Positions 3,285-61,886 of a DNA stretch of 64,000 nucleotides are shown piece after piece; position 1 is the stretch's first letter, and each line of letters starts with the position of its first letter. Source of the DNA: Candidatus Nomurabacteria bacterium (lineage in GTDB: Bacteria > Patescibacteriota > Minisyncoccia > Phycocordibacterales > UBA918). The position numbers were made by a program, and so were the translations under genes. Below the pieces are notes generated by a model, which made no database searches, had not been told where the DNA came from, and was given only the letters and a program-made list of their open reading frames with translations. Location: contig JACKGI010000002.1 in assembly GCA_020632015.1 (NCBI GenBank), forward strand, positions 91,121 to 155,120, written 5' to 3'.

Positions 3285-4247
3285 ATGAAAAATGTTGTGG
3301 TTCTTAGAGGTGGCCCAAGTCAAGAGTATGACGTTTCTATGCGAACAGGACAAGCTGTCTTAGAAGCTTTAAACAAACTTGGATACACCCATAAGGATGT
3401 CGTTGTTAGCAAAAAAGGTGAGTGGTTGCATAATGGCTTTGTACGTAATCCTGAGGCTGTTCTAGATGCTACAGATGTGGTTTTTTTGGCCTTACATGGC
3501 GAATATGGTGAGGATGGACAAGTGCAGAGAATTCTCCAAAGAAAGAATGTGCCGTTCACAGGGAGTCGTGCCATGCCTTCATCAATTGCTTTTAATAAAG
3601 AACTTACAAAGGAAACCTTGCGTTCGTTAAACATAAGAATGCCAAGACACAGAAGAGTCACTAGACACGAACTCAAGTCTTTAGATGAAGAGATTCCAAA
3701 TATTTTTAGAGAGGTGGGAAAGGAATTATTTGTGAAGCCTATTTCGGCGGGTTCATCAGTTGGAGCTTCATACGCTCCAACAAAAGAAACACTGAAGTCT
3801 GCACTGACTACACTGCTCGATATGTACGAGCAAGTTCTAGTCGAAGAATTTATACGTGGAAAAGAGGCTACTGTTGGTGTTCTAAATAATTTTAGAAATG
3901 TCACTACTTACGCACTACCTGTCGTCGAGATAGTTCCGCCCAAATCAGATGTTTTCTACTCAGCTACCAACAAGTACAACGGCTCGACCGAACAAATCTG
4001 CCCTGGACGATTTTCTTACCATGAAAAAGCAATGTTGTCAGAAGCTGCATCATTAGTACATGAAGCGATTGGTTGTGACCAGTATTCAAGAAGTGATTTT
4101 ATCGTCAAAGATGGAGAAGTTTACTTTTTGGAGATTAACACCTTACCTGGACTAACCCCTCATTCAAATTTTCCAAAAGCTGCTTCTGCAGTTGGACTTG
4201 AATTTCCTTATTTAATTAAGCATCTAGTCGAAACAGCGACTGTGTAA
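3285..4247 (+). CDS. ddl: D-alanine--D-alanine ligase
   Basis: VLRGGPSQEYDVS, LHGEYGEDGQVQ, ATP-grasp core, EINTLPGLT. Confidence 0.9.
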   Translation: MKNVVVLRGGPSQEYDVSMRTGQAVLEALNKLGYTHKDVVVSKKGEWLHNGFVRNPEAVLDATDVVFLALHGEYGEDGQVQRILQRKNVPFTGSRAMPSSIAFNKELTKETLRSLNIRMPRHRRVTRHELKSLDEEIPNIFREVGKELFVKPISAGSSVGASYAPTKETLKSALTTLLDMYEQVLVEEFIRGKEATVGVLNNFRNVTTYALPVVEIVPPKSDVFYSATNKYNGSTEQICPGRFSYHEKAMLSEAASLVHEAIGCDQYSRSDFIVKDGEVYFLEINTLPGLTPHSNFPKAASAVGLEFPYLIKHLVETATV

Positions 4248-4330: not shown

Positions 4331-4403
4331 GGGCTCGTAGCTCATCTGGTAGAGCGCCTCATTTGCACTGAGGAGGTAGCGGGTTCAAGTCCTGTCGAGT
4401 CCA
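4331..4403 (+). tRNA. tRNA-Ala (anticodon UGC), CCA not encoded
   Basis: Manual cloverleaf: acceptor GGGCTCG/CGAGTCC with G3:U70, D arm GCTC/GAGC, anticodon stem CCTCA/TGAGG with loop TTTGCAC, T loop TTCAAGT, discriminator A. Confidence 0.9.
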
Positions 4404-4412
4404 CAATGAAAT

Positions 4413-4581: not shown

Positions 4582-4654
4582 GGGCTCTTAGCTCATCCGG
4601 TAGAGCGCTTCCATGGCATGGAAGAGGCGAGCGGTTCAAGTCCGCTAGAGTCCA
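4582..4654 (+). tRNA. tRNA-Ala (anticodon GGC), CCA not encoded
   Basis: Acceptor GGGCTCT/AGAGTCC with G3:U70, anticodon stem CTTCC/GGAAG with loop ATGGCAT, T arm AGCGG-TTCAAGT-CCGCT. Confidence 0.9.
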
Positions 4655-4662
4655 CTATAAAA

Positions 4663-31074: not shown

Positions 31075-33015
31075 ATGAACAAAGGCAACGACATTCGTAA
31101 AAAATACCTAGATTTCATGGCCAAAAACGGCCATGCTGTTATTCCGTCATCTGCTCTTGTACCAGAAAATGACCCGACGACTCTTTTTACCGGTAGCGGT
31201 ATGCAGCCACTTGTACCGTACCTGATGGGAGAAACCCACCCAAAGGGCACCAAGCTAACTGACTCACAGAAGTGCTTTCGAGCTGAGGACATAGAAGAAG
31301 TGGGAGATAATCGACACACTACTTTTTTCGAAATGCTTGGAAACTGGTCACTAGGTGACTATTTTAAACAAGAACAACTTCCTTGGTTCTATTCATTTTT
31401 GACTGACGAAGTAGGACTAAATCCAGAAAATATATACGTTACAACATTTATTGGTGACGAAAAAGCAAATGTCCCCAAAGATACAGAAGCTGTAGACATA
31501 TGGAAGAAACTCTTCACTGAGAAAGGTATCTCTGCTGGCGTGGCTGAAATGGGCTCAGAAGAAGAGGGTGGTGAAAGGGGAATGAATGAAGGCGAAAGAA
31601 TCTTTTACTACGACGCAAGTAAGAACTGGTGGACGCGCGCTGGAAAGATTCAAAACATGCCAGTGGGTGAAATAGGAGGTCCTGATAGTGAGGTGTTCTA
31701 TGATTTTGGTACTCCACATGACACAAAGTTTGGTAAACATTGCCACCCAAACTGTGACTGCGGGCGTTTTCTTGAAATCGGGAATTCTGTATTCATGGAA
31801 TACATCAAGACAGAAAACGGCTTTGAAAAACTACCAAAGCAAAACGTTGATTTTGGTGGAGGTCTTGAGCGTATCGCAGCAGCGGCAATAGAAGAGAATG
31901 ACATGTTTAAAGTTGATTTACTTTGGAATGTGGTTGAAAAAATCCAAACCTTGTCTGGAAAGAAATATGAAGATAATCTAGTCGCTTTTAGAGTTGTGAC
32001 TGATCATGTTCGAGGAGCAACTTTCATGATTGGAGACGGCATACTACCAAGCAATACTGAACAAGGTTATTTCGTACGGAGGCTACTTCGTAGAGCGGTA
32101 CGCTACGCTGACATGATTGGAGTTCCTGAGGGAATGTTTTCTGACCTCGCAGAAGCTGTAATTCAAACCTACAAAGGACATTACACAAATCTTAAGGATA
32201 AGGAGGAGGAAATAAAACAAACAATTACTCAAGAGGAGGCTCAATTCCGCAAGACACTTGAAAATGGACTTAAACAATTTAATAAAATCTCACTTCAAGT
32301 TCATGTAAACACTAAGGTGGTGGATGGTAAAAAAGTTCTAGACAAGGAATCAACCGTAACAAAAAAAGCTATCAGTGCTCAGAATGCCTTTGATTTATTT
32401 ACTACTTACGGTTTTCCGATTGAGTTAACTGAAGAAATCGCTGAAGAGAAAGGACTAATTGTCGACAAGGCTGGCTTTGAAAAGCTTATGGAGGAACATC
32501 GAGAAAAGTCTCGAGCAGGAGCGGAACAAAAGTTCAAAGGAGGACTTGCTGATCACTCTGAGACAGTGGTTCAGTATCACACTAGTACACACCTCCTTCT
32601 AGCTGCGCTTAGACATTTCTTGGGAGACCACGTACACCAAGCTGGCTCAAATATCACCGGGGAACGCCTTCGATTTGACTTCACTCATCCTGAAAAAATC
32701 GACCGTGACACCCTAGACAATATTGAAGACTGGGTAAATCAAGCTATCAAAACAGGAGGTAAGGTAACGATTGACATGATGCCGAAAGAAACTGCTGAAA
32801 ATGATCCAACTGTGGAAGGTAGTTTTTGGGACAGGTATCCTGATGAGGTGAAAGTTTATACAGTAAACGGTAATGATGGAACTATTTTTTCCCGCGAGCT
32901 TTGTGGGGGTCCACACGTTGAAAATCTAGAAGATATAACCGGAACCTTCAAAATCAAAAAGGAAGAATCGTCATCAGCAGGTGTACGTAGAATCAAAGCG
33001 GTCTTGATAAAGTAG
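31075..33015 (+). CDS. alaS: Alanine--tRNA ligase, short form (646 aa)
   Basis: Class II catalytic core (FTGSGMQP, FFEMLGNWS, FGGGLERI), editing-domain HTSTH and CGGPHV; ends right after the editing domain. Confidence 0.95.
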   Translation: MNKGNDIRKKYLDFMAKNGHAVIPSSALVPENDPTTLFTGSGMQPLVPYLMGETHPKGTKLTDSQKCFRAEDIEEVGDNRHTTFFEMLGNWSLGDYFKQEQLPWFYSFLTDEVGLNPENIYVTTFIGDEKANVPKDTEAVDIWKKLFTEKGISAGVAEMGSEEEGGERGMNEGERIFYYDASKNWWTRAGKIQNMPVGEIGGPDSEVFYDFGTPHDTKFGKHCHPNCDCGRFLEIGNSVFMEYIKTENGFEKLPKQNVDFGGGLERIAAAAIEENDMFKVDLLWNVVEKIQTLSGKKYEDNLVAFRVVTDHVRGATFMIGDGILPSNTEQGYFVRRLLRRAVRYADMIGVPEGMFSDLAEAVIQTYKGHYTNLKDKEEEIKQTITQEEAQFRKTLENGLKQFNKISLQVHVNTKVVDGKKVLDKESTVTKKAISAQNAFDLFTTYGFPIELTEEIAEEKGLIVDKAGFEKLMEEHREKSRAGAEQKFKGGLADHSETVVQYHTSTHLLLAALRHFLGDHVHQAGSNITGERLRFDFTHPEKIDRDTLDNIEDWVNQAIKTGGKVTIDMMPKETAENDPTVEGSFWDRYPDEVKVYTVNGNDGTIFSRELCGGPHVENLEDITGTFKIKKEESSSAGVRRIKAVLIK

Positions 33016-49443: not shown

Positions 49444-49452
49444 GTGTCTACT

Positions 49453-50403
49453 ATGACAAACACCAAGAAGCGCCTTTTAACTGGCCTACAATCATCAGGA
49501 ACACTTCATATCGGAAATTATTTTGGTGCACTCAAACCCTTTTTAGATATTTATCAAGATTATGACAGCTACTTAATGGTGGCTGATTATCACGCGCTAA
49601 CCAGCTTACGTGACCCAGCTCAATTGCGACAGAATATTTTCAATGTGGTTAAAGACTATCTAGCAGTCGGCGTAGATCCAGAAAAAGCAGTCATCTTTAG
49701 GCAGTCAGACAATCAGGACCACACTGAACTAGGTTGGGTATTGGATTGTATGGTGACAGTACCTTTCCTGATGCAAGCTCATTCATACAAGGCTAAAGTT
49801 GATAAGGGAATTGAACCAAACGCAGGTCTTTTCACATACCCAATGCTCCAAGCAGCCGATATCACTCTCTATGATATTGATGTGGTACCAGTAGGGGAAG
49901 ACCAGCGACAACACCTCGAATACACACGAGAAGCGGTAGGAAAGTTCAACCGCGCTTTTGGCGAAGTCTTGAAGGAGCCAAAAGAAATGATTCTAGACGG
50001 TGTTGGAATTGTACCCGGTGTCGATGGTCAAAAAATGAGTAAGAGTTACGGAAACACTATTCCACTGTTTGGTACCAAGGAAGAAATTGAAAAGGCAGTT
50101 ATGAGCATAGTGACTGACTCAGAAGGTGATAGACCTGAGAACGTATACGCTATTCACAAGTTACTTAAGTCAGAAGACGAATTAGCTCCACTATACGAAG
50201 AAAAGAAAGGTAGATACGGTGACCTGAAAAAAGCTCTGATTGAAGACCTAGAAAACTTCATCGCACCTATGCGTGAAAAACGTAACCAAATTACAGATGA
50301 TGATGTAAAAAGTGTTTTGGCTGAGGGTGTCGCTAAAGCAAAGCGTACATCTGGTCAAACTCTCAAGAAGGTTCGCGAAGCAATCGGAATAGACCTCGGT
50401 TGA
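49453..50403 (+). CDS. trpS: Tryptophan--tRNA ligase
   Basis: LTGLQSSGTLHIGNY, VPVGEDQRQH, KMSKS; ATG 49453 preferred over GTG 49444, which abuts the -10. Confidence 0.95.
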   Translation: MTNTKKRLLTGLQSSGTLHIGNYFGALKPFLDIYQDYDSYLMVADYHALTSLRDPAQLRQNIFNVVKDYLAVGVDPEKAVIFRQSDNQDHTELGWVLDCMVTVPFLMQAHSYKAKVDKGIEPNAGLFTYPMLQAADITLYDIDVVPVGEDQRQHLEYTREAVGKFNRAFGEVLKEPKEMILDGVGIVPGVDGQKMSKSYGNTIPLFGTKEEIEKAVMSIVTDSEGDRPENVYAIHKLLKSEDELAPLYEEKKGRYGDLKKALIEDLENFIAPMREKRNQITDDDVKSVLAEGVAKAKRTSGQTLKKVREAIGIDLG

Positions 50404-50799: not shown

Positions 50800-50810
50800 A
50801 TGAAGACTCA

Positions 50811-50835
50811 ATCGACCCTACGGGGTCGATTTTTA
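50811..50835 (+). terminator. Rho-independent terminator
   Basis: ATCGACCC-TACG-GGGTCGAT followed by TTTT. Confidence 0.65.
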
Positions 50836-50841
50836 TTGACT

Positions 50842-51030
50842 AAATCTCTTTCAGTGTTAATCTTTATTCAAGCCGAAGAAACAGATGACACTGTGGAGGT
50901 AACACAATCGAATAGTAACGAGGGCTCTTCGAGCTAAAGTAGGGTGGCACCGCGACTTATCAAATGATAGGAATCGCCCCTATAAATCTATTATTAATTT
51001 AATGAATTTATAGGGGCGATTTTCGTTCCT
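50842..51030 (+). promoter_or_regulatory. T-box leader (tRNA-sensing riboswitch) with antiterminator/terminator switch, upstream of aspS
   Basis: T-box sequence AGTAGGGTGGCACCGCGA (50938-50955); antiterminator TAGGG[TGGCACC]GCGA pairs with TCGC+CCCTA (50974-50982); competing 16-bp terminator 50972-50987/51006-51021 plus T-run. Confidence 0.8.
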
Positions 51031-51043
51031 ATATAAAATTTTT

Positions 51044-52402
51044 ATGGAACGAACATTAATTAAAGACCTACACGAGCACGTAGGGAAGGAAGTAACAATC
51101 AACGCGATTGTTAATGTTGTACGCCAACAGGGCAAGATGGCATTTTTTGATTTCCGAGACAGGACTGGAGTTATTCAGGGAGTTGTCTTCGGCAAGCCTG
51201 AAGTACTAGAGACAGCCAAACAAGTAGGGGAAGAATTCTCTTTATCAATAACTGGAATCGTTAACCAAAGACCAGAGAAGATGGTTAACGCAAATGTTCA
51301 AAATGGAGATATAGAGCTTGAGATTACAGGCCTAGAAATCCTAAACCCATCTGAACCAATGCCGTTTGATATGGAAGCAGACCTAAATATTGATACGCTT
51401 CTAGACACTCGACCACTTACATTAAGAAAGCCAAAAATAAAAGCGATATTTGCAATACAAGCAACTATCGTAAAAGCCTACGGTGAATACATGCGACAAG
51501 AAGGATTCACTGAATTCCAAGCGCCAAAAATTGTTGGTGGGGACGCTGAGGGTGGAGCTGAAGTATTCAAGGTAGATTACTTCAAGAACGTAAAAGCTTC
51601 TCTAGCAACCAGCCCACAGCTATATAAACAAATTATGGTTGGGGTTTTTGAAAGAGTATTCACCTTTGCTACAGCCTTTAGAGCCGAAAAGAGTGCCACC
51701 AGCCGCCACCTTAGTGAGTACACTTCACTCGATATGGAAATGGGATTCATTAAAGACCATTTGGACATCATGAAAGTAGAAACAGGTCTTATGCGTTACA
51801 TTGTGAAATGTCTAGCTGAAGATAATGCAAAAGAATTAGAAATTCTGGGTGTGGAGCTACCAAAGATTCCAGAAGGCGATATCTTCCCACACATGAAACT
51901 TAGAGAGGCACAGGAACTTATCAAAAAAGAAACTGGTCAAGATAAAACTAATGAACCAGACCTTGAGCCAGAGGACGAGCGTTGGTTGTGTGAATACGCA
52001 AAAGAAAACCTAGGAAGTGATTTTATCTTTATTACTCACTACCCGGTTAGCAAACGACCTTTTTACACAATGGAAGATAGTGAAGACAAAGGATTCACAA
52101 AAAGCTTTGACTTACTTTTCAGAGGAGTAGAAATCACGACTGGGGGACAGCGCGTGCACGACATTAACGTGATAAAAACAAAAATTAATGAAAAAGGTCT
52201 TGATCCAGATAAATTTGTTTTCTACATGCAAGCCTTTCAATACGGAATTCCGCCACACGGTGGCTGGGGAATGGGACTAGAAAGACTAACTGCAAAATTC
52301 TGTGGAGTCTCAAACGTAAAGGAAGCTACATTATTCCCACGAGACATAAACCGTATCGACACCTTTACTTCTAAAGAGCAAAGTGACTCTGCTGAAATAT
52401 AA
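51044..52402 (+). CDS. aspS: Aspartate--tRNA ligase, archaeal/eukaryal-type (type 2, 452 aa; possibly non-discriminating)
   Basis: N-terminal OB fold; FRAEKSATSRHLSEYTSLDMEM; TTGGQRVHD...FYMQAFQYGIPPHGGWGMGLERL; no bacterial GAD insertion. Confidence 0.9.
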   Translation: MERTLIKDLHEHVGKEVTINAIVNVVRQQGKMAFFDFRDRTGVIQGVVFGKPEVLETAKQVGEEFSLSITGIVNQRPEKMVNANVQNGDIELEITGLEILNPSEPMPFDMEADLNIDTLLDTRPLTLRKPKIKAIFAIQATIVKAYGEYMRQEGFTEFQAPKIVGGDAEGGAEVFKVDYFKNVKASLATSPQLYKQIMVGVFERVFTFATAFRAEKSATSRHLSEYTSLDMEMGFIKDHLDIMKVETGLMRYIVKCLAEDNAKELEILGVELPKIPEGDIFPHMKLREAQELIKKETGQDKTNEPDLEPEDERWLCEYAKENLGSDFIFITHYPVSKRPFYTMEDSEDKGFTKSFDLLFRGVEITTGGQRVHDINVIKTKINEKGLDPDKFVFYMQAFQYGIPPHGGWGMGLERLTAKFCGVSNVKEATLFPRDINRIDTFTSKEQSDSAEI

Positions 52403-59305: not shown

Positions 59306-60418
59306 ATGAAAATCGGTTTTGTCGGAGGAGGAACAGGCGGACACTTCTATCCACTCATCGCAGTGGCTGAGGAACTTAGTCGTGATGCCCGCAATCCTCA
59401 GATGTACTACTTCGGTCCGTCACCATACGACAAGACTGCTTTGCAGAATTTAAATATAAAATTTATTTATTGCCCAGCAGGTAAGTTAAGAACATATTTT
59501 TCAATTCAGAATTTTATTGATATTTTTAGAAATTTCTTTGGAGTTTTTGTAGCAATCTGGAAGCTATTTGTAATTTATCCTGACGTTATTTTTAGTAAGG
59601 GTGGATACACTAGCGTACCTATTTTGTTGGCAGCAAAATTTTTACGTATACCAGTTGTGATTCATGAGTCTGATTCTATACCAGGTAGAGCAAACAAAAT
59701 GGCTACTAAACAAGCTAAGTATATTGCAATTTCTTATGATGACGCCGCGCAGTTTTTTCCTCCGGAAAAAACTGCGCTAACCGGCATCCCACTTCGAACT
59801 GCCATCAAAGACGTACCAGCTGACCCTTACCAAGTCCTTGGCATCCCAAACGACAAACCTCTTCTGTATATTACAGGTGGCTCAAGTGGCGCAGAAAGAA
59901 TAAACAATATTATTTTGCGCTCCCTGAATCAACTACTACCTCACTATCGTATTTTCCATCAAACAGGACCAGCTAATCTTGAAGAGATGAAGTTAGCGGC
60001 ACAAAGCTTACTGGCAGGAACTGATTTGCTAGATAGTTATTACCTAGAAGGTAGCATAGATGCCAAAATGGTCTCCGCGCTAATGAGTGCGTCGTCACTT
60101 GTAATTACGAGAGCTGGTAGTACCACACTCTTTGAAATTGCTTACCACGGCAAACCATCTGTTGTTATCCCAATTCCTGAAGACATAAGTCGCGACCAAA
60201 GAAGTAATGCCTACGCTTACGCGAGAACAGGTGCCGCCTCAGTGATAGAAGAACAAAACCTAACCCCAAACTTGCTTGCACAGGAAATTAGCACTATTAT
60301 GAGTGACCAAAACCGATATTCTGAAATGTCTGTTGCCGCCAAAGCTGTTTTTGTTGACGGAGCGTCAAAGAAAATTGCCGACATACTACTATCGATTGGA
60401 ATTGAACATGGATCATAA
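59306..60418 (+). CDS. murG: UDP-N-acetylglucosamine--LPS... lipid I GlcNAc transferase MurG
   Basis: GGGTGGHFYP, HESDSIPG, ITGGSSGA, ITRAGSTT; ATG 59306 (track start 59255 overlaps ftsW). Confidence 0.93.
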   Translation: MKIGFVGGGTGGHFYPLIAVAEELSRDARNPQMYYFGPSPYDKTALQNLNIKFIYCPAGKLRTYFSIQNFIDIFRNFFGVFVAIWKLFVIYPDVIFSKGGYTSVPILLAAKFLRIPVVIHESDSIPGRANKMATKQAKYIAISYDDAAQFFPPEKTALTGIPLRTAIKDVPADPYQVLGIPNDKPLLYITGGSSGAERINNIILRSLNQLLPHYRIFHQTGPANLEEMKLAAQSLLAGTDLLDSYYLEGSIDAKMVSALMSASSLVITRAGSTTLFEIAYHGKPSVVIPIPEDISRDQRSNAYAYARTGAASVIEEQNLTPNLLAQEISTIMSDQNRYSEMSVAAKAVFVDGASKKIADILLSIGIEHGS

Positions 60419-61886
60419 AAACACTACAAATAAAGTTGTGACTCGCTTTGCACCGTCACCAACGGGTTTTTTGCACACTGGAAGTGTCCGCACTGCTCTT
60501 TATGCCTACCTCTTTGCATGCAAAAATAACGGAACGTTTATACTCAGAATAGAAGATACGGATAAGGCTAGGGAAGTAGACGGTGCGGTTCAGCATATAC
60601 AAGACTCTATGCGTTGGCTTGGTATAGAATGGAATTACGGTCCTGATAAACCCGGTCCTTTTGGATCTTGTATACAGTCAGAAAGGTTGGGCAGTTACAA
60701 AAAGTACGCTCAACAACTTATAGACAAAGGGCTAGCTTATCCTGATCCATACACACAAGAGGAGATAGAATCTTTCCGTGAATTAGCTAAGAATGAAGAA
60801 CGACCTTTTTTATATCGACACCACAGACCTGAAAAATTTGATGAATGGGATGGTACTAAACCGTTAAGATTGAAGACACCTGAAATCAAGCGATATGAGT
60901 GGAATGATGTTGTAAGAGGCAAACTGTCAGCCGGAGAAGAGATGCTCGATGATTTTATAATCATCAAAGCGGATGGTTATCCGACCTACAACTTTGCGCA
61001 TATTATCGACGACCTAGAGATGGGCGTGACCCACGTCATGCGCGGAGAAGAGTTTATTTCCAGTACACCAAAATACCTTAGTCTGTATGACGCACTAGAA
61101 ATCCCATACCCAACTTTTGTCACACTTCCTCCTATAATGGGTCCAGATGGAAAGAAGAAACTTAGCAAAAGAGACGGAGCCAAGGACTTGCTCGACTTTA
61201 AAAAAGAAGGTTACTTACCTGAAGCAATGCGAAACTTTCTTGCACTTATCGGCTGGAATCCAGGCGGTAATGATGAAATATTTCCTAGCAGTGAATCAGA
61301 GAACACCCTTGTAGAAAAGTTTTCGTTAGAAAAAATCCAACGCTCAGGCGGTGCTTTTAATGAAGAAAAACTCAAGTGGATGAACAAGGAGTATCTCCTA
61401 AGACAAAATCAAGACTTCTTACTAACCTACCTCAAAGAGGCTATTCCTGACACTATTACATCATTGCCACAGTTCTCAGACGAAAGACTCAAAAAGCTTT
61501 CTCCAGTGGTTTTTGAACGTATACACAACAAAGCCGAGATTGTTGAAGCGAGCGAAGCAGGGGAGTACGATTTTGCCTTTTCTGCACCTGAATACGAAAA
61601 AGAGCTATTGCTATGGAAAAACGATTCGTCTGTCGAGGAATCCTTACCAAGACTAAAGAAAACAGCTGAACTCTTGAATGACGCTGATTTCAGAAACACA
61701 GAAACAATAAAGCAATCTATCTGGCAATACGCAGAAGAAGTAGGTAGAGGGGAAGTACTTTGGCCTTTGAGAACCTCACTTTCTGGTCGTAAACAATCAC
61801 CAGACCCGTTCACCCTTGCCTACATTCTTGGAAAAGAGGAAACAATCTCCCGTATACAGACGGCTTGTGATAAAATATCTGGGTAA
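60408..61886 (+). CDS. gltX: Glutamate--tRNA ligase
   Basis: RFAPSPTGFLHTGS, IEDTD, KLSKR; ATG 60408 overlaps the murG end by 11 nt. Confidence 0.93.
   Translation: MDHKNTTNKVVTRFAPSPTGFLHTGSVRTALYAYLFACKNNGTFILRIEDTDKAREVDGAVQHIQDSMRWLGIEWNYGPDKPGPFGSCIQSERLGSYKKYAQQLIDKGLAYPDPYTQEEIESFRELAKNEERPFLYRHHRPEKFDEWDGTKPLRLKTPEIKRYEWNDVVRGKLSAGEEMLDDFIIIKADGYPTYNFAHIIDDLEMGVTHVMRGEEFISSTPKYLSLYDALEIPYPTFVTLPPIMGPDGKKKLSKRDGAKDLLDFKKEGYLPEAMRNFLALIGWNPGGNDEIFPSSESENTLVEKFSLEKIQRSGGAFNEEKLKWMNKEYLLRQNQDFLLTYLKEAIPDTITSLPQFSDERLKKLSPVVFERIHNKAEIVEASEAGEYDFAFSAPEYEKELLLWKNDSSVEESLPRLKKTAELLNDADFRNTETIKQSIWQYAEEVGRGEVLWPLRTSLSGRKQSPDPFTLAYILGKEETISRIQTACDKISG

Follow-up and report, generated by a model that had tools for sequence, protein, structure and literature searches.

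A stripped-down tRNA-Asp T-box leader upstream from the aspS gene of a Patescibacteria (CPR) genome

The region analysed forms part of a 64,000-nt stretch of DNA (hereafter referred to as the window; contig JACKGI010000002.1 of assembly GCA_020632015.1), in which the order trpS, about 110-aa ORF, aspS is conserved in relatives. The aspS gene encodes an archaeal-type aspartyl-tRNA synthetase (AspRS) of the non-discriminating, tRNA(Asn)-charging type, matching NCBIfam NF003483 (aspartate--tRNA(Asn) ligase) with a score of 487 bits (cutoff 353), and has the Pfam tRNA-synt_2 domain and an OB anticodon-binding domain. It is preceded by a T-box leader (a tRNA-sensing RNA switch), the coordinates of which are given in Table 1. 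The T-box sequence, its 7-nt bulge, the antiterminator, the mutually exclusive terminator and the AspRS ORF identified by a first-pass annotation were all confirmed at the positions given there. The exact T-box core, GGTGGNACCRCG, occurs only once in the 64 kb, with about 0.46 matches expected even if one mismatch is allowed, and the leader folds better than all 200 shuffled sequences (z = -4.7). The first-pass annotation gave a distance of only about 105 nt between the upstream terminator and the T-box sequence, but this interval includes a promoter of ~35 nt, and the transcribed part upstream of the T-box sequence is therefore only about 68 nt. No other T-box was found in the window, despite the presence of alaS, trpS and gltX.

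Table 1. Coordinates of the leader, the aspS gene and associated features in the window.
Feature	Coordinates	Strand	Description
Intrinsic terminator of the preceding 114-aa ORF	50810..50835	+	9-bp stem with 5 G-C pairs, followed by a T-run; marks the 5' limit of the unit
Sigma-70-type promoter	50836..50863	+	-35 TTGACT at 50836-41, 16-nt spacer, extended -10 TGtTAATCT at 50855-63; predicted transcription start at about 50870
Ultrashort Stem I	50872..50900	+	3-bp base helix G72/C73/C74 with G98/G99/U900; K-turn with bulge GAA at 75-77 and tandem G78A79 opposite G96A97; 4-bp upper helix 50881-84 with 50891-94; 6-nt apical loop AUGACA at 50885-90
Specifier	50887..50890	+	GAC (Asp) at 50887-89, followed by the purine A50890
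Linker	50901..50919	+	19 nt, A/U-rich, single-stranded; in place of Stem II and IIA/B
Stem III region of the discriminator domain	50920..50939	+	GAG (RAG motif) at 50920-22; 5-bp Stem III at 50923-27 with 50931-35 (loop UUC); then AAAG
T-box sequence	50938-50955		AGTAGGGTGGCACCGCGA
Antiterminator	50940..50982	+	A1, TAGGG 50940-44 with CCCTA 50978-82; bulge UGGCACC at 50945-51; A2, GCGA 50952-55 with TCGC 50974-77; inner extension at 50956-61 with 50966-71
Intrinsic terminator	50972..51029	+	16-bp stem 50972-87 with 51006-21 (16 of 16 Watson-Crick pairs), inner helix, UUUUCGUU tract; shares 50974-82 with the antiterminator
aspS	51044..52402	+	ATG at 51044; 452 aa
alaS, trpS, aspS, gltX	31075-33015, 49444-50403, 51044-52402, 60303-61886		Four aaRS genes within the 64 kb
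Two tRNA-Ala genes	4331-4404 and 4582-4655		Anticodons UGC and GGC; 180 nt apart

The leader is not detected by the Rfam T-box model RF00230 at its gathering threshold (gathering score 93). A permissive search of 401 nt gave a score of only 27.6 bits (E = 2e-4), with an alignment that retained the Stem I base and K-turn, Stem III and the antiterminator, but in which 72 positions of distal Stem I and 40 positions of Stem II were deleted. The absence of a significant hit with this model had been proposed by the first-pass annotation as grounds for refutation, but here reflects the missing modules rather than the absence of a T-box. Nevertheless, the leader has defining features of the broad family: the conserved T-box sequence (AGGGUGGNACCGCG in the family, AGUAGGGUGGCACCGCGA here), an antiterminator with a 7-nt bulge that is mutually exclusive with a terminator, a Stem I with a basal K-turn and a specifier codon that is followed by a purine and matches the downstream gene, and a Stem III with flanking purines.

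We investigated whether this element was conserved in related genomes. The nearest AspRS proteins (73-84% identity) are labelled Candidatus Kaiserbacteria or Pacebacteria. A scan of GTDB species representatives returned 80 orthologous Patescibacteria loci (related loci are hereafter designated by L and a number), 30 of which carry GGTGGCACCGCG about 90-130 nt upstream of aspS. In all 31 leaders, 8-9 of the 9 antiterminator pairs can form (9 of 9 in the window), and the antiterminator overlaps a G+C-rich hairpin followed directly by a U-run in essentially every leader. A conserved module, ..CC-NNN-GA-N-helix-[C/A]UGACA[A/C]-helix-N-GA-GG.., lies further upstream. A pattern scan of metagenomes for the short form identified 56 loci containing 54 distinct leaders, nearly all of which lie directly upstream of an AspRS gene, either of the archaeal type or, in eight loci (L088, L096, L104, L112, L113, L131, L134 and L136; ORFs of 466-479 aa), of a bacterial type lacking the GAD insertion. 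By eye, the N-terminal anticodon-binding domain of the L088 enzyme closely resembles that of the archaeal-type enzyme of the window, which hints at domain mosaicism. Short forms occur across AspRS identities of 30-85%. In L052 (5677-5858) and L058 (7094-7243), Asp-specifier T-boxes sit upstream of other genes that precede aspS (a Peptidase_S51 gene in L052 and two ORFs without Pfam hits in L058), and the leader can therefore control a small operon.

The predicted structure was supported by covariation. In a MAFFT alignment of the Stem I module from 27 leaders, 96.3% of cells were paired and compensatory changes were found in 6 of 7 pairs, a result reached by none of 500 shuffles, and the signal collapsed when the register was slid. 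The GA/GA of the K-turn and the U-GA-A of the loop were invariant. MAFFT alignment of the whole leaders misaligned the variable Stem III, and we therefore built a covariance model seeded with the window and three relatives of the same architecture, followed by Infernal alignments. This model recovered all the leaders and identified a single element in the window (127 bits). For 27 confident hits, 97.5% of cells were paired, and 17 of 21 pairs, spread across all five helices, displayed compensatory changes (0 of 500 shuffles; about 40% of cells paired when the register was slid), including 6 of the 9 pairs of A1 and A2. Likewise, with 59 distinct short-form leaders, compensatory changes were observed for all five Stem III pairs, with 98% of cells paired. 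The covariance-model alignments are fitted to the structure, but the independent MAFFT alignment of Stem I gave the same answer.

The promoter abuts Stem I: in 65 of 75 related leaders with a promoter scoring at least 8 of 12, the -10 hexamer ends 7-10 nt before the first base of Stem I, and in the window the predicted start lies about 2 nt before it. The RNA therefore starts at Stem I and nothing can be hidden upstream. The linker has no predicted structure and displays no sequence conservation among relatives, and the RF00230 Stem II positions deleted here are aligned in the long-form relative L008. These data bear out the core interpretation of the first-pass annotation, a compact T-box with a reduced Stem I and no room for Stem II or IIA/B, upstream of an archaeal-type aspS gene in a CPR genome. 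However, that annotation placed GAC-A within a K-turn-like sequence, whereas the specifier sits in the apical loop of Stem I.

The specifier is unambiguously GAC (GAU in two relatives). The loop reads U-GAY-A in 29 of 29 ultrashort leaders, in which it is 6 nt long in 15 and 7 nt long in 10, and in all 56 metagenome hits, although this motif was required by the search pattern in the latter case. GAC tracks aspS. The tRNA-Asp (GUC) of L007 and the tRNA-Asn (GUU) of L058, the only such genes found in about 1.6 Mb of related loci, both have G73, which is compatible with the UGGC bulge, and UGACA is fully complementary to U33-A37 of this tRNA-Asp. No tRNA-Asp gene was found in the window, the only tRNA genes of which are those for tRNA-Ala. 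In L007, a relative without a T-box, the tRNA-Asp gene (3412-3486) itself lies about 1.1 kb upstream of aspS. Four aspS leaders (L021:9899, L062:4640, L064:1471-1599 and L071:9686) have a UGGU bulge, which is not explained by G73 and would imply an A73 tRNA-Asp or a tolerated mismatch. Two further T-box-like elements were noted in the related loci. In L048 (12426-12595, - strand), a discriminator with a UGGA bulge and a terminator lies upstream of a 578-aa ThrRS, with only about 65 nt between the bulge and the start codon of a divergent gene, leaving almost no room for a promoter plus Stem I, and with an ACC-A near the putative transcript start. In L029 (6103-6215, - strand), an element with a UGGU bulge (GGGUGGUACCACGA, with a terminator), the specifier of which was not identified, lies upstream of a GCS2-family (glutamate-cysteine ligase-like) ORF, in the same contig as an aspS T-box.

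The related leaders form a reduction series. L062, L064 and L071 have a Class IV-like Stem I plus Stem II. L008, L009, L014, L038 and others have the ultrashort Stem I with a Stem II (GAA/AGUAGAA S-turn strands) and a IIA/B element aligned by RF00230, whereas L027 and L028 retain IIA/B behind a mini hairpin. About 30 distinct leaders, including that of the window, have no Stem II, and about 23 more (L012:4675-4776, L082-L084, L088, L093, L097, L106, L111, L119, L127, L129, L130 and others) appear to lack Stem III too, with only 26-30 nt between Stem I and the T-box (..AAUGAGAC(C)AAA-GUAGGG), although Stem III is described in published studies as indispensable for the discriminator domain. These counts are approximate, because the pattern-based classification of Stem II and Stem III misfiles some long forms (L021, L025, L030 and L047). 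In a neighbour-joining tree of AspRS sequences, these forms were interleaved (L008 next to L015, L028 next to L029, and L009 next to L012), suggesting repeated loss, although this tree has no support values. Close relatives without any leader have aspS fused 1-19 nt behind the upstream gene, and L010 retains the same terminator and TTGACT promoter, with the leader cleanly absent.

The best explanation is that this region is a tRNA-Asp-responsive transcription attenuator for aspS with a reduced architecture (probability of about 0.8), although its function is inferred from sequence and comparison and has not been demonstrated experimentally. The terminator (-29.2 kcal/mol), which ends about 20 nt before the start codon of an essential gene, is far more stable than the antiterminator alone (-13.2 kcal/mol), the usual T-box asymmetry that makes read-through depend on tRNA. 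On the basis of the established T-box mechanism, uncharged tRNA-Asp (anticodon GUC, discriminator G73) would pair its anticodon with GAC and its 3'-GCCA with UGGC, stabilising the antiterminator so that RNA polymerase reads through into aspS, whereas Asp-tRNA-Asp would be sterically rejected, with formation of the terminator and arrest of aspS transcription. With no distal Stem I platform to stack on the tRNA elbow and no Stem II S-turn or IIA/B pseudoknot to clamp the codon-anticodon duplex, recognition would rest on two short pairings only. We infer that the apical loop may compensate: in its 7-nt versions, C-U-G-A-C-A-A/C, it has the layout of an anticodon loop (U33-like U, UNR turn, A37-like purine) and could therefore form an anticodon-anticodon-type kissing contact with two G-C pairs, an inference that draws on the complexes that tRNAs with complementary anticodons appear to form. 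More tentatively, and in our view slightly less likely than not, the leader may constitute a fifth natural T-box architecture, a transcriptional tRNA sensor of about 110 nt, widespread in Patescibacteria, requiring neither the elbow platform nor Stem II and no protein help. If so, it would define the true minimal T-box and overturn two published generalisations: that binding must be augmented by the platform, by Stem II or by both, and that transcriptional T-boxes require a long Stem I.

Autonomous function is, however, unproven, and the principal alternative, which we consider unlikely but not negligible, is that the same T-box depends on a trans-acting factor, such as a K-turn-binding L7Ae/YbxF-type protein, AspRS itself or another RNA-binding protein, for the stabilisation normally provided by Stem II or the elbow platform. 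Short Stem I hairpins have been reported to barely bind tRNA without Stem II (PMC7583486), and the K-turn is invariant even though there is no Stem II for it to position. Nevertheless, the K-turn is also retained without a Stem II in glyQS T-boxes, and, although we did not test for protein partners, no candidate gene is linked to the leader, the neighbouring genes of which vary among loci. A second possibility, a refinement of the main interpretation rather than an exclusive alternative and supported only weakly, is that the leader senses both substrates of the non-discriminating enzyme, GAC pairing with tRNA-Asp (GUC) and, through a G-U pair at the first specifier position, with tRNA-Asn (GUU). 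This would be consistent with the type of enzyme, with the G73 of tRNA-Asn from a relative and with the absence of the Stem II S-turn, which is said to monitor codon-anticodon geometry (PMC7778990, PMC7583486), but it remains purely inferential, and the same GAC leader also precedes bacterial-type AspRS genes. There is no asnS paralog in the window, and neither gatA nor gatB was found among the ten ORFs of 410-650 aa screened. It is improbable that the leader is a decaying relic acting only as a leaky constitutive attenuator. Stem II, Stem III and the whole leader have been lost repeatedly in this lineage, and the frequent loss of the leader in close relatives is compatible with weakening selection, but more than 80 distinct leaders retain an invariant U-GAY-A loop, K-turn GA/GA, UGGC bulge and RAG motif, with covarying stems and freely drifting linkers, and a -29 kcal/mol terminator in front of an essential single-copy aaRS gene needs an antitermination mechanism. 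Translational control through a sequestrator is also improbable: all previously described short-Stem-I T-boxes are translational (PMC7583486), but the alternative helix here is a G+C-rich hairpin followed directly by a U-run and does not cover a ribosome-binding site. Finally, the alternative Asn specifier AAC-G (50917-20) suggested by the first-pass annotation, although AAC is an Asn codon and the enzyme also charges tRNA-Asn, is rejected, because it lies in the unpaired purine-rich flank (..AAYGAG) immediately 5' of Stem III, which is replaced by ACAAG, UUAAG, AGAAG or UGGAG in relatives.

Four classes of T-boxes were defined by Suddala et al. 2023 (PMC10482949), who stated that binding is augmented by the elbow-binding platform, by the Stem II S-turn, "or both". 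It has also been reported that transcriptional T-boxes generally require the long Stem I (PMC7583486) and that only glycine T-boxes lack Stem II (PMC11297988). In these terms, the leader studied here is a Class III Stem I joined to a Class II linker and read out by transcription termination. It therefore has neither augmenting module, a combination for which we found no description in the papers we could search, in which nothing was found on T-boxes in CPR, Patescibacteria or Parcubacteria. Our findings show that T-boxes exist in CPR bacteria, where they are invisible to Rfam-based annotation. TBDB applied its short-Stem-I model to Actinobacteria and to sequences already detected by the Rfam model with a truncated Stem I (PMC7778990), and relatives of this leader score only 30-50 bits on RF00230, so the family would not have been collected. 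This family bears on the nature of the minimal tRNA-sensing unit, on the contributions of Stem II and the K-turn and on the affinity and speed required of a transcriptional switch, and would offer a roughly 110-nt scaffold for engineered tRNA-charging sensors.

The leader shares with Class I T-boxes, as modelled by RF00230, the T-box sequence, the 7-nt bulge, the A1/A2 antiterminator opposed to a terminator, Stem III with flanking purines, the K-turn and a specifier followed by a purine, but about 112 of the 219 model positions (distal Stem I and Stem II/IIA) are absent, and Stem I, at 29 nt, ends in the specifier loop, with no distal interdigitated T-loop platform. In Class II (glyQS) T-boxes, as here, a flexible single-stranded linker replaces Stem II, read-out is by transcription termination and the layout is compact (PMC10482949), but glyQS retains the long Stem I with the tRNA-elbow platform and an internal specifier loop, and is restricted to glycine, with an all-G/C GGC:GCC duplex thought to make Stem II dispensable. 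Class III T-boxes (Nocardia farcinica and Mycobacterium tuberculosis ileS; the "ultrashort" Stem I of Sherwood et al. 2015, PMC4313828, cited here through reviews) similarly have a short Stem I without the double T-loop platform, a specifier in a penta- or hexanucleotide apical loop, a basal K-turn and the same discriminator domain (PMC10482949, PMC7583486). However, they "require stem II for function", and are translational, Ile-specific and Actinobacterial, whereas the leader of the window has no Stem II or IIA/B, ends in an intrinsic terminator, is Asp-specific and is from Patescibacteria. Its long-form relatives (L008, L014, L038 and others) do match Class III in layout, but they too are transcriptional. 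Finally, Class IV T-boxes (Actinomyces odontolyticus ileS; intermediate Stem I) are relevant only as a probable earlier step in the reduction series, being resembled not by the leader of the window but by its relatives L062, L064 and L071, in which GAC-A lies in a side bulge below a short distal hairpin, with Stem II and IIA/B.
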